A stretch of 64,000 nt of DNA from Candidatus Thorarchaeota archaeon (GTDB lineage: Archaea; Asgardarchaeota; Thorarchaeia; Thorarchaeales; Thorarchaeaceae), in the NCBI GenBank assembly GCA_046758445.1, contig JBHIAE010000004.1, positions 1-64,000 on the forward strand. Reading direction: 5' to 3'. Below are positions 19,168 to 23,303 of the stretch, piece after piece. Every line of letters begins with the position of its first letter. Within the stretch, counting starts at the first letter, position 1. A program made the translations under genes and the position numbers. The notes beneath the pieces are model-generated. The model was not told the origin of the DNA. It was given only the letters and a program-made list of their open reading frames with translations, and ran no database searches.

Positions 19168-20465
19168 GTGATGACAATGGCCGATTACAAGGTAAAGGAC
19201 ATTGGGCTTGCCGAAGAAGGCAGGATGCTAATCGACTATGCGGAGAAACACATGCCTGTGCTTATACATCTCAGGAAGAAGTACTCCAAGACAAAGCCAC
19301 TCAAGGGTATGAAGATTGCTGGCTGTCTCCATGTGACAAAGGAAACAGCTGTACTCGTGGAAACTCTTCGAGAGGTCGGAGCTGAAGTGGCCTGGTCTGG
19401 CTGCAATCCACTGTCGACGAACGACAAAGTGGCTGCAGGACTTGCCGCCAATGATGTTCCGGTGTATGCCTGGCACAATCTGAACACCGAGGAATACTAC
19501 TGGTGCATTGAACAGACCCTCAAGACTGAGCCAACGTTGACGCTTGATGACGGAGCGGATCTGATTTTTACGTTACACAACAAGCACCAAGAGTTGATAC
19601 CCAATCTCTATGGAGGTTCTGAAGAAACCACAACTGGGGTGATTCGTGTCCGAGCAATGGCTGAAGATAGTGCCCTGAAGTACCCAATCATGGCCGTCAA
19701 TGATGCAGACACCAAACACTTGTTCGACAACGTATACGGTACCGGACAGAGCGTTTTCGATGGTGTAATGAGAGCTTCTGCGATTCTGATTGCTGGTAAG
19801 ACCGTAGTCATCGGTGGCTACGGGTTCTGTGGTCGCGGAATGGCGGAGCGTGCAAGAGGACTGGGTGCAAATGTGATTGTCACTGAAGTTGATCCAATTC
19901 GCGGACTACAGGCTCGAATGGATGGTTTCAGGGTTATGCCTATGAATGATGCTGCACGTGAAGGCGACCTGTTTCTGACTGCCACTGGTATGAAGGACAT
20001 CATCACTGGTACTCATATCAAAGAGATGAAGGATGGAGCAATTCTGGGAAATGCTGGACATTACAATGTTGAGATCAATGAGCCAGACCTTGCCAAGCTT
20101 AGCACTGGGAAGAGAAGGGTTCGACCTTCTTTGGATGAGTATACATTGAAGGATGGCAGAATTGTGTACCTTCTCGGAGAAGGTAGGCTTGTCAATCTGG
20201 TCGCTGCGGAAGGTCACCCCAGTGTCAGAAGAGCATTCGCTGCTCTCTAGATGGAAAGGTGATGGACCTCAGCTTTGCAGGCCAGCTGAATGCAATGATC
20301 TGGTTGACCAAGCATGGGAAGGACCTCAAACCAGCCGTGTATGAGTTTCCGAAGGAACTTGATCAGCAGACTGCCTTGGCAAAACTAGAAACCATGGGTA
20401 TAAAGATAGACAAATGGACCCCAGAGCAGGAGGCCTACGCAAAGGCTTACGCCGAGGGAACCTAG
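19168..20465 (+). CDS. ahcY: S-adenosylhomocysteine hydrolase, split by a 32-nt intron: join(19168..20224,20257..20465)
   Basis: GCLHVT, CNPLST, DDGAD, SEETTTG, KHLFDNVYGTGQS and GRLVNLVAAEGHPS motifs. Removing 20225-20256 restores GHPS-E-VMDLSF and gives one ORF of 421 aa (418 aa from ATG 19177). Confidence 0.92.
20225..20256 (+). other. Putative bulge-helix-bulge mRNA intron (32 nt) in ahcY
   Basis: TCAGAAGAGCATTCGCTGCTCTCTAGATGGAA. Outer helix UCACC:GGUGA; central helix CCAG:AUGG; bulges UG^U and AA^A; inner hairpin GAGCA-UUCGC-UGCUC; contains an in-frame TAG. Confidence 0.8.
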
Positions 20466-20475
20466 TCAAAGAGTA

Positions 20476-20513
20476 GAAGAGGCAGACAACTATGCCTCTT
20501 CACCTCTTTTTTT
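20476..20513 (+). terminator. Terminator hairpin between convergent ahcY and the endonuclease-like gene
   Basis: GAAGAGGCA-N8-TGCCTCTTC perfect 9-bp stem followed by a T7 tract. Confidence 0.7.
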
Positions 20514-22370
20514 CTACCCAGAATCTTCAGCTTCCAATTCAGGCGATTTAGTCAATTCCAGCCACTTTTGCGTTTGCTCAATCTTATTTCGGGCTTCCTT
20601 CACTCTACGGGGATGAGCCTTCATCCACTTCTCCAGTATTCTTCGCTTTCTCTTGTCGTTGGGAGGTGCTTGAATCCCCCACATAGCAACATCCTCTTGA
20701 CTACTAGTTGCCGTAGTCCATTTCACTGAAACTCGACCTGTCTGCTCAGAGTAGCTGATGTATGAAGGGTCCTGTTCCTTAGTCATAATACCATTGGCCA
20801 AACAGAGTTGTTTCTCGTCCTCAACAAAGCCTGAGGGATTGGTACGAACAATATAGTCCAACTCTTTCGCAGCCTTAGCGTCTGCTGAGTCCTCAGATTC
20901 CATCAAGCTCTCTAGCATGGTAATAGACAACTCACGAAATCGGCCCTCAACAGCGTCCCTTCCGTATCTACGCTCAGTAGGTTTCCCATGCTTCTTAATG
21001 AAGTCAACTTGACTACCTGTCAGTCTTGACACGAATCTGTATTTGTCAGCCTTCAAAGGATCATGAAGAACTACAGAACGACTCCAAGTGATTCTTGCAT
21101 AGTCCTTTGCATCCACTGCGACTGAGCCTTCTTCAGGAACTAGCTCACAAAGATACGCTAACTGAACCCGAGAAGAGCCATATTTAATCCAATCCGGTAG
21201 TCGGACTCCTTGCAGAACCTTGTCCCCGACGGTCATTCCTAGTCTGGCCAAAAGACGCCCAATGATATTCGGAACGTGAAAACCACCCTCCGACTTGTTT
21301 CTGTTGCGTATAATTGGAGTTGCAACTTCTCCAATTCGCTGCAGCATCGATCTCACAATGGTGCGGCGAGTGGCATCGTTTTCATAGTAGAATATACGGT
21401 GACCAGATTCGATGCTCCCATCGGAAGCAACGATTGCAAAAAGCCTCGCCATCAATGTGATGAAATCCACTTCTATGAGGAACTTTGGTCTGACAATCTG
21501 CCTCCCTTGACCCAATCGAGTTATTCCAGACTCGACGTCTTTGAGCGACTTCCCTTGTGCGTCCATCAGCAGCTGAAGCGTTCTTCCTCGCAAATGAGCT
21601 GAGTTCGGAGTGAAATCGGAGATGATTCGCCCTTCTCGACCTGTTACCTTCTCTTGATAGTCAGCTAGCTGTCTTACGACGTTGCTGAGGTCATAATCCC
21701 CATTGAGGCCAAGAAAGTTACGTCCTTCGCGAGTAATTGGCTTTCTCTCTCTCTTGCCGAAGAAGAAGAGCTCATCCGCGAACAGGTTGAGATAGTTGAA
21801 TTTGCGAGTGTCTTTGCGCCAAAAGTAGAGAAGCGATCCCACGACGGCTATCCGCATCTCCTCATCAGGGTTTACATCCAGCCCAAGATTCTTGTTCAGT
21901 TTCTCTTCTATCTGCTTACGATTTGCTTGTATCGACTTTCGTACATCTAGCAGCCATCTTGGACCATGATTGTAGTTGTAGGGTTTCAAGTGAGCGAAGG
22001 CAACTCGTTGAATAGGAGTTCTGGCAAGAAGATGCTCTAGAGCCCTGGCCATCCTTCCCACACTGTGCCGTTTTCGGTTTCTAATTGAACGAAGAGCACG
22101 AAAGACTGTTGAGGAATCGATAAGATTCTCGAGTGCTCTAGTTGGTTGTTTCGATTCTAGCTTCCTTCTCATGACCTCATTCTCGACCACTTGGTTGATC
22201 AATTCTGGAGTCCTTCTTCCTGAAACCCACGTCCTAGCAGTACCGAATGGCACGTCCTGAGCCATACGAGCCACTGCCGAATGAGAGAGCTCCGAGTCCT
22301 CTCTTCTAATACGCATGAGCCGAAAGTATTCCTTGACTGCATTCAACATCTTGGCGAACATCTTGGCCAA
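20514..22370 (-). mobile_element. Free-standing HTH + double-LAGLIDADG (DOD/intein-type) homing-endonuclease-like protein
   Basis: N-terminal HTH (SHSAVARMAQDVPFGTARTWVSGRRTP); motif 1 LFAIVASDGSI; LPDWIKYGSSRVQLAYL linker; motif 2 AYLCELVPEEGSV. No HINT splicing termini recognised. The 5' end is uncertain. Confidence 0.65.
22345..22367. repeat. Tandem direct repeat AACATCTTGGC x2 (period 12)
   Basis: Copies at 22345-22355 and 22357-22367, at the junction between the endonuclease-like ORF and the truncated flavoredoxin. Confidence 0.75.
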
Positions 22371-22715
22371 CTAGCTAACTACATAGGGACCAACTCAGGA
22401 AGAGAAGTGGACAAGTCTGCATTGTTCAAGATATTCTATGGTGAAACAGAGGCTCCAATGATTGAGGAGTGTATTCTCAACATGGAACTTGAGGTGAAGG
22501 AGATAATCGAGTTTCCAGATCACTTCATGGTTCTTGGAGATGCCGTGACATCTTATGTTGATGAAGAGAATATGACCGATAACAAACCAGACATGAAGAA
22601 GATGAATCCTGTCATATACACCGGAGCTGAAAAACGACCGACATATTGGGCACTGGGTGAAAAGCTTGGAGATGCGTTTCGAATAGCGAAGGACTTCAGG
22701 AAACTCAAGTCATAG
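22368..22715 (+). pseudogene. 5'-truncated flavin reductase/flavoredoxin-family gene (C-terminal half only)
   Basis: LANYIGTNSGREVDKS...APMIEECILNMELEV...H...G...YWALGEKLGDAF matches the flavoredoxin C-terminal half. The upstream in-frame sequence is antisense to the endonuclease-like ORF. Confidence 0.75.
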
Positions 22716-22772: not shown

Positions 22773-23303
22773 CTAATCTCTGAGCTTCAGCTTGAAGACT
22801 CGCTCGAACTTGTCTAGTTTGGGCTTTATGACCAGCTGACAGTATCGTTGGTTTGGATTGCGACGGAAGTAGTCTTGGTGGTAGTCTTCAGCTTGGAAGA
22901 ACTTGGTGAAAGGGACAATCTCCGTCACAACTGGGTTATCCCAAACACCACTTTCATCGACACTCTTCTTGGCCCGTTCAGCTGCCTTTCTTTGTTCCTC
23001 ATCGTGGAAGAAGATTACCGAACGATACTGGGGACCTACATCGTTGCCTTGGCGGTTCGGTGTTGTGGGATCGTGAATCTCGAAGAACGCCTCGAGTAGC
23101 TCGTCGTAGCTTATTTGCTCTGGGTCATACTCGATCCGGCAGACTTCTGCATGACCAGTTCTGCCTGTGGTGACCTGTTTGTAGCTTGGATTCTCAACAT
23201 GCCCACCTGAATATCCTGATACTACAGATTCTACTCCTTTCAGTTGCTGGAATGCTGCTTCTACACACCAGAAACAACCGGCTCCAAATGTAGCAACTTC
23301 CAT
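22773..23303 (-). CDS. msrA: Peptide-methionine (S)-S-oxide reductase
   Basis: GAGCFWCVEA, TGHAEV, HDPT..NRQGNDVGPQYRS and AEDYHQDY. Confidence 0.95.
   Translation of the reverse strand: MEVATFGAGCFWCVEAAFQQLKGVESVVSGYSGGHVENPSYKQVTTGRTGHAEVCRIEYDPEQISYDELLEAFFEIHDPTTPNRQGNDVGPQYRSVIFFHDEEQRKAAERAKKSVDESGVWDNPVVTEIVPFTKFFQAEDYHQDYFRRNPNQRYCQLVIKPKLDKFERVFKLKLRD

Follow-up and report, generated by a model that had tools for sequence, protein, structure and literature searches.

Fungal mitochondria contain elements termed mORFs (Allomyces macrogynus atp6; Glomus atp6, atp9, cox2, and nad3), in which an endonuclease gene is combined with a C-terminal duplication of the host gene: a LAGLIDADG or GIY-YIG gene travels with a foreign C-terminal coding part, and the native part is left downstream and decays (PMC3630166). 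The locus described here lies on 64,000 nt of contig JBHIAE010000004.1 (the window) of a Thorarchaeota-like Asgard metagenome-assembled genome (MAG), as judged from the source names on the nearest homologues. It comprises ahcY, the gene for S-adenosylhomocysteine hydrolase, which is interrupted by a 32-nt insert, and a convergent gene for a 618-amino-acid (aa) LAGLIDADG protein directly behind it. As in mORFs, a free-standing endonuclease gene is found here together with a replacement host 3' end, a displaced native copy is present at related loci (ahcY in genomes G053 and G014; also argF, scpB, and LSm), and inserted and native copies have different phylogenetic affinities. Unlike mORFs, the locus is on an archaeal chromosome, and the nuclease gene is convergent to the host gene, instead of being in phase with it or following it in the same orientation. 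The encoded proteins are of much greater size and have helix-turn-helix (HTH)-like repeats and acidic N-termini, a bulge-helix-bulge (BHB) intron lies at the border, and the activity is a predicted one.

Collaborative, or trans, homing of phages is represented by F-CphI with the psbA intron of cyanophage S-PM2 (PMC6083498) and by mobE with the I-TevIII intron of T4 (PMC2790892). Similarly, the free-standing endonuclease gene of the window adjoins a gene with an intron at or near the putative nuclease target, and flanking markers appear co-converted. The phage introns, in contrast, are self-splicing group I introns in regular partnership with the endonuclease, whereas the ahcY intron is a BHB intron of 32 nt, predicted to be spliced by host enzymes, and co-occurs with the nuclease gene in one of 16 genomes.

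Homing endonucleases of archaea are known from inteins and from rRNA and tRNA introns. With the archaeal rRNA BHB introns (I-DmoI, I-Tsp061I) and their ORF-less derivatives (ORF, open reading frame) the locus shares the nuclease fold (Z 15-17), the intron class, and the splicing machinery, but its nuclease gene is not contained in the intron and has the opposite orientation, and the host gene is protein-coding. The cbf5 pre-mRNA intron of Crenarchaeota is a short BHB intron of a protein-coding gene, gained and lost in a patchy manner among relatives (PMC2738675). The ahcY intron resembles it in size, type of host gene, and patchiness, but it is in another gene and another phylum (Asgard), and it sits at a hot spot of recombination to which a homing-type nuclease is linked. 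No archaeal chromosomal free-standing LAGLIDADG family that moves with the replacement 3' end of a housekeeping gene was reported in the literature searched, which is not proof of absence.

We consider it fairly probable that the 618-aa protein is a free-standing homing endonuclease from a lineage specialised on the 3' end of ahcY, that its cassette carries a replacement ahcY 3' end in a mORF-like manner, and that the mini-intron is a separate element.

The nuclease family and the mosaic 3' end of ahcY

The genome of the window is designated G000 and its relatives G001 onward. The set searched consisted of 87 genomes of the same order, and the intron site of ahcY was readable in 71 of them. 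All genomes are MAGs, many are fragmented, and contigs frequently stop within the nuclease gene. Counts cover the genomes searched, and kin genomes among them are non-independent samples.

Pfam gave no match on the 618-aa protein at E 0.01, and NCBIfam gave only a weak one, to an intein-containing RtcB model in its endonuclease region. As neither offered a usable family, the LAGLIDADG identity was settled by a fold search. All Foldseek matches of the AlphaFold2 model (predicted local distance difference test 88, alignment of 13 sequences) were LAGLIDADG homing endonucleases. In VIA-align, residues about 300-590 were superimposed on the Tli VMA intein endonuclease, PI-PfuI, I-Tsp061I, and I-DmoI (7qsu, 1dq3, and 2dch included) with Z 15-18 and a root-mean-square deviation of 2.2-3.1 Å over 160-190 residues. 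The acidic residues at the helix ends are conserved in all 13 aligned members, D317 being invariant and position 414 being E or D. According to the model, the protein has the two-motif LAGLIDADG nuclease fold, in which two alpha-beta-beta-alpha-beta-beta-alpha halves pack against each other via their LAGLIDADG helices, and cleavage of DNA is predicted for it. The double-LAGLIDADG domain given in the preliminary description is in this way borne out by structure and not by Pfam. The HTH label given there to the N-terminus is plausible, as the first 190 residues are helical with repeated W-x4-P motifs, but weak, as the Pfam HTH models were reached by one family member only. Homologues are few, with only eight among 5.8 billion proteins; both organism-named ones are from Thorarchaeota, and one of the eight matches the Pfam LAGLIDADG family PF14528 at 3.9e-06.

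Within the order the family is multicopy, as it was found in 39 of 61 sampled genomes with up to eight matches each. The closest genome matches of the 618-aa protein are copies adjoining ahcY in G041 (two contigs), G016, and G014. Intact copies convergent behind ahcY are present in G000, G041 (on both contigs), G016, G072, and G014, where contigs C69 and C28 were joined via an exact overlap of 127 nt; remnants of the gene were identified at the same place in G053, G018, and G077. The tree of nuclease domains unites the ahcY-linked copies from three genera in a single clade (Shimodaira-Hasegawa-like approximate likelihood ratio test (SH-aLRT) 96; 86 with G014 included), and its sister clades, also spanning genera, contain the scpB-linked (SH-aLRT 100) and LSm-linked (99) copies. 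Members convergent to LSm, argF, scpB, and rpS19 genes lie no more than 76 nt behind the stops of these genes (loci L114 on G016:C108, L101 on G031:C109, L103 on G039:C37, L107 on G052:C328, and L104 on G014:C48), and the LSm, argF, and scpB loci contain displaced copies of the last 20-35 codons of the host gene. Among 19 further family loci whose flanks allowed a test, four were found to have the nuclease gene between the host 3' end and a displaced copy of it, namely argF, scpB (twice), and LSm (with two displaced copies).

The preliminary description had named an occurrence of the family at many unrelated loci with no link to introns as an argument against its proposal, and the family does occur at other loci that are without introns. 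No mini-intron was found at the argF border in the 87 genomes, where the listed orthologues run without a break up to their final residue, apart from a match in G053 that stops earlier. This match (G053:C40:27862-28695) ends at residue 334 of 387, near the border of the argF-linked cassette of G031, and could be another interruption.

A second ahcY 3' segment, comprising the last ~68 codons, is present on the same contig in at least nine genomes (G053, G040, G012, G065, G084, G026, G032, G042, and G014), and further genomes have extra 3' copies on other contigs. In G053 and G014 the two copies flank the nuclease gene or what is left of it. The full-length extra copies have their 5' borders clustered in a stretch of about 10 nt at A/GGNCAY/CCN, the codons for GHPS, and this stretch precedes the intron insertion point by 6-14 nt. 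Because some sequence ahead of the intron site is retained in the displaced copies, comparison of the borders suggests that the double-strand break probably occurs at the GGNCAY/CCN codons and not at the insertion point itself. The gene is single-copy in G000, and no second 3' copy was found in this genome. Locus L061 (G016:C254:1-14000), which is distant from the functional gene, contains three additional ahcY 3' copies in a span of 10 kb, and another one is on contig C5; the copies of G016 look like a graveyard of displaced copies or of repeated invasions.

The 3' part of the G000 gene is mosaic. Genome G084 is the closest relative of G000 for ahcY exon 1 and for the neighbouring genes, with protein identity of 93% for an AsnC-type regulator and 94% for msrA. 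Identity between the two genomes is 91.4% in the terminal 267 nt of exon 1 (its final 27 nt excluded) and 72.5% in exon 2 (Fisher p 9e-8), while the median difference in other genomes is -5 points. Within positions 20197-20224, 20 of 28 nt match, and the switch is near 20197, about 25 nt before the intron. The contrast is reversed in the comparison with G053, with about 72% identity in exon 1 and 81% in exon 2, and the exon 2 adjoining the nuclease gene therefore has a history of its own. A co-conversion tract in the 3' part of ahcY, which the preliminary description had proposed to look for, was thus found in G000, and the same drop is located at the intron in G040. The latter is 84.6% identical to G073 and G075 before the break and 70-72% after it, with the break at CATCC/TAGTG, i.e., at the intron itself. 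In G040 a resident copy lacking the intron was displaced by a foreign 3' segment that carries it, and in G000 the intron is inside the exchanged tract along with the nuclease gene.

Given the ahcY-linked clade, the sister clades at scpB and LSm, the displaced ahcY copies, and the breaks in identity between gene segments, the adjacency of ahcY and the nuclease gene is not due to chance. In the mORF-like reading, three parts would make up the mobile cassette, namely the final ~70 codons of ahcY as a replacement copy, a short spacer, and the nuclease gene in convergent orientation. The enzyme would cut a nuclease-free ahcY allele near the GGNCAY/CCN (G-H-P) codons, and repair would copy the cassette from the donor. 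With homology on both sides the resident 3' end would be replaced, giving mosaic genes. One-sided repair would push the resident 3' end downstream, where it would decay as a displaced copy, and would sometimes import cargo.

The mini-intron and its distribution

The reading frame of ahcY breaks after ...GGT CAC CCC AGT G (20224) and resumes with AG GTG ATG GAC (20257). Deletion of the 32 nt between them restores GHPS-E-VMD, as in about 59 uninterrupted orthologues. Exon 1 shares 80-97% aa identity with orthologues. The ORF-less 32-nt intron, the gap of about 260 bp to the nuclease gene, and the spacing of 48 bp between the two stops, as given in the preliminary description, are all correct in the sequence (the nuclease ORF lies 258 nt from the intron end, with its stop 48 nt past that of ahcY).

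Inserts at exactly the same ahcY position were found in 12 of the 71 readable genomes, with carriers spanning eight genera and both exons intact in all 12. Type I inserts of 32 nt are present in G000, G035, G052, and G064, and G059 has a 59-nt variant of this type with an internal duplication. Type II inserts of 31 nt are present in G004, G040, G066, G021, G047, G024, and G032. Exons of intron-less congeners are closely related to those of the intron-bearing alleles.

The minimum free energy (MFE) fold of the intron region is not of the BHB form and is only mildly better than those of shuffled sequences (z -1.9). A comparative pairing count was used instead, in which 11 introns with flanks were aligned and one common structure was counted. 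In this structure 86.6% of the cells pair, while partners slid by 1-3 columns pair in 27-54%. Seven pairs changed on both sides; the central helix is 91% paired and covarying, alternating between CCAG/CTGG and CTAG/CTAG, and two 3-nt bulges are on opposite strands. The fourth central pair of G000 is a G.A mismatch, which corresponds to a relaxed motif. Cuts after the second base of each bulge (TG/T, AA/A) would give AGT G/AG GTG and restore the Glu codon and the reading frame. Two EndA splicing endonuclease genes (PF01974; contigs C1 and C7) and the RNA ligase gene rtcB (C6) were identified in G000. From these comparisons the insert can be regarded as a genuine BHB intron, with splicing itself being predicted and indirectly supported by the single ahcY copy of G000 and by the intact exons of all 12 carriers. 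Rfam at the gathering threshold and ARAGORN gave no matches on the window, and other copies of the intron core (GCATTYGNTGC) in G000 were only chance-like matches in coding sequences, with no intron family among them.

Intron and nuclease gene are distributed close to independently. Among the 71 readable genomes there are 12 with the intron, five with an intact ahcY-linked nuclease gene, and three with its remnant, and only G000 of the 16 genomes having either element has the intron together with the intact gene. No intact adjacent nuclease gene was seen in the other 11 intron carriers, with G035 not judgeable, as its contig ends there. Four of the five genomes with an intact ahcY-linked nuclease gene have ahcY uninterrupted. 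At the site itself, Glu is replaced by Ser (GAR to TCT, giving GHPSS) in G041 and G016, the sequence is AGDGHPSE in G072, and it is ordinary in G014. The preliminary description had named independent distribution as what would refute its module of intron and nuclease, and with 11 of 12 and four of five genomes having one element alone, an obligate collaborative-homing module is not supported.

The block AAEGHPSEVMD, which is otherwise invariant (around window positions 20205-20262), has undergone radical codon swaps in some lineages of the relatives. Both before and after GHP, Glu was changed to Ser, with GAR becoming TCN or AGY; in genus g5 the sequence is HSSS. These swaps could be a legacy of selection for nuclease-resistant sites.

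In the mORF-like reading, the mini-intron would be a separate ORF-less BHB intron, excised from the mRNA by the splicing endonuclease and RtcB. Its place would be the left border of the exchanged segment, with the putative break zone 6-28 nt upstream of it, and it could for this reason ride along by co-conversion, as in G000 and G040; neither the intron nor the nuclease gene would need the other.

Weighing of the explanations

Collaborative homing, as proposed in the preliminary description, would mean that the nuclease cuts the intron-less site, that the intron splits the recognition sequence and protects it, and that both spread jointly by co-conversion. Parts of this stood, namely the tie of the nuclease to the ahcY 3' end, seen in the clade of three genera, and the co-conversion tract; the obligate partnership with the intron did not. 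An intron site as near to the putative break zone as this one would be expected by position alone in about 2-5% of cases in a gene of 1.26 kb, and the exchanged tracts of G000 and G040, the former with the nuclease gene and the latter with an ousted intron-less copy, also fit joint spread. Intact nucleases of the inner ahcY clade are, furthermore, mostly beside an altered site, be it GHPSS (G041, G016), AGDGHPSE (G072), or the intron (G000), but G014 combines an intact nuclease gene with an ordinary uninterrupted site. Against joint spread are also the single occurrence of both elements together, a frequency of the intron that is similar with and without traces of invasion (in a rough tally, roughly 4/21 versus 8/~46), and the closely related exons of intron-bearing and intron-less alleles within genera. 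The cut, placed by the displaced copies upstream of the intron site, is probably not at the insertion point, and the argF-linked relative works without any intron. We regard collaborative homing as unlikely. A related reading, in which the mini-intron is kept as a shield that splits or displaces the ahcY target, makes its carrier immune, and hitch-hikes on the repair of nuclease-provoked breaks, is only slightly less doubtful and is put forward tentatively. Movement of the intron in trans through the break would be another, similarly unlikely form of a functional link.

An origin of the mini-intron as the stump of a BHB intron that once carried this nuclease gene, which later escaped or was deleted, would agree with the fold matches to the archaeal intron-encoded enzymes I-DmoI and I-Tsp061I and with the same short ahcY stretch being the target of both elements. 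No long intron was found at the site in the 71 genomes, however, the longest insert of 59 nt being explained by its internal duplication, and the nuclease gene is on the opposite strand, while the sister lineages at scpB, LSm, and argF are free-standing and without introns; such an origin is very improbable. Somewhat less remote, and still quite improbable, are chance neighbours, i.e., a domesticated DNA-binding or non-homing LAGLIDADG protein beside duplications that arose from unrelated recombination at a conserved block. The fold is also matched by regulators of the WhiA type (Z about 16), an ATPase gene or a partner gene goes with some of the paralogues, and several duplications have no nuclease remnant between the copies. 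Both catalytic acids are, on the other hand, conserved family-wide, the host-gene-specific clades hold across genera, a nuclease gene flanked by the host 3' end and a displaced copy of it is seen at ahcY, argF, scpB, and LSm alike, and the remnants at the same place in G053, G018, and G077 fit a cycle of invasion and decay.

Several observations weigh against the mORF-like reading itself. The extra copy lies behind a flavin-reductase gene in G012, G084, and G026 and behind a gene for a 445-aa secreted protein in G040, with no nuclease remnant detected (a hidden Markov model search for remnants between the ahcY copies found none in G012, G040, G032, and G026), and a nuclease as the cause in G012, G084, G026, and G040 is for this reason presumed and not seen. 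Extra ahcY copies on separate contigs could stem from co-binned strains, as the MAGs are fragmented. Approximately unbiased (AU) tests on the 204-nt exon-2 tree did not reject concordant placements (p 0.10, 0.42, 0.13), and the discordance is therefore based on the identity contrasts between gene segments. Some family members are behind a membrane HerA/VirB4-like ATPase gene or accompanied by a partner gene of ~220 aa, so that not all of the family can be regarded as simple homing elements. The nuclease of G000 has a shorter N-terminus than its orthologues, which have 757 to over 1268 aa, and this copy, without their N-terminal part, could be decaying. We infer the cleavage, the cut position, the direction of transfer, any immunity, and the splicing.

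Neighbouring genes, cargo, and meaning of the locus

The features of the locus are listed in the table, including the right-hand junction of the inserted block.

Table. Features of the ahcY locus, with positions in the window
Feature	Position	Strand	Basis or remark
ahcY, whole gene (S-adenosylhomocysteine hydrolase)	19177-20465; alternative starts 19168 or 19171	+	Sequence, Pfam
ahcY exon 1, residues 1-349 and first base of Glu codon	19177-20224	+	Pfam AdoHcyase 1e-58, AdoHcyase_NAD 4e-55
Recombination/border zone, codons L-V-A-A-E-G-H-P-S, putative double-strand break zone	20197-20224	+	G000/G084 alignment; extra-copy borders
BHB motif	20213-20263	+	Outer helix 20213-20218/20258-20263; central 4-bp helix 20219-20222/20251-20254
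BHB motif, further parts	3-nt bulges 20223-20225, 20255-20257; inner hairpin 20226-20250	+	Covariation
Mini-intron, ORF-less, 32 nt, type I	20225-20256	+	Sequence; same site filled in 12/71 genomes
ahcY exon 2, last 69 codons and stop	20257-20465	+	Pfam AdoHcyase 1e-08; segment exchanged and duplicated in relatives
Spacer of 48 nt between convergent stops, hairpin and T-run	20466-20513	.	Read from sequence
Free-standing LAGLIDADG endonuclease gene, 618 aa, TTG start	20514-22370	-	Fold, homologues, ahcY-linked clade
Double-LAGLIDADG domain, residues ~300-590, motif 1 LFAIVASDG (D317), motif 2 LVPEEG (E414)	20601-21473	-	Structure match
Flavin-reductase-like gene, 3' fragment, ~first 76 codons missing	22368-22715	+	Pfam Flavin_Reduct, profile positions 58-138 only
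msrA, conserved right-hand neighbour	22773-23303	-	Directly after ahcY in G058, G081, G082 (empty site)

The inserted block of G000 (intron, exon 2, and nuclease gene) ends at 22368-22370. The flavin-reductase fragment starts exactly at the start codon of the nuclease gene, and homology to G084 begins at 22368. A full flavin-reductase gene of 190 aa is present in G053, G084, and G012, and in G084 and G012 this gene and an ahcY fragment are between ahcY and msrA. The fragment of G000 is probably a pseudogene left by a deletion, and a deletion probably accounts for the absence of the N-terminal part of the nuclease, of the displaced ahcY copy, and of the start of the flavin-reductase gene.

Different cargo was found between the ahcY 3' copies of the relatives. 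It is the flavin-reductase gene in G012 (L079:3106-3672) and G084 (L065:3048-3605), and in G040 the gene for the 445-aa secreted protein, which is beta-helix-like (L046:2576-3913). The hot spot behind ahcY seems to import unrelated genes.

Other members of the family have different surroundings. Two paralogues of G000, on contigs C91 (L056:108-5822) and C2 (L058:1-4820), are each behind the gene for a membrane-anchored HerA/VirB4-like P-loop ATPase of ~1070 aa. The ORFs of both pairs are in the same frame with one TAG between them, for which read-through, a pyrrolysine codon, or coincidence are all possible. One nuclease subgroup is accompanied by a conserved gene without a Pfam family, ~215-224 aa in length, which is on the same strand and overlaps the stop of the nuclease gene (L057:4898-5569, with equivalents in L102, L111, L112, and L118).

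If the mORF-like reading is true, ahcY, scpB, LSm, argF, and perhaps rpS19 would be the host genes of such a family, and selfish-gene mobility of the mitochondrial and phage style would extend to the archaeal lineage closest to eukaryotes. The mosaic genes and the capture of cargo at the hot spot behind ahcY, as with the flavin-reductase and secreted-protein genes, would be explained, and one of the very few BHB introns of protein genes would sit exactly at this hot spot, which would turn the gain, loss, and movement of ORF-less archaeal introns into a directly testable question. The shield reading, if true, would provide ORF-less BHB introns in protein genes with a selective reason and a route of mobility.

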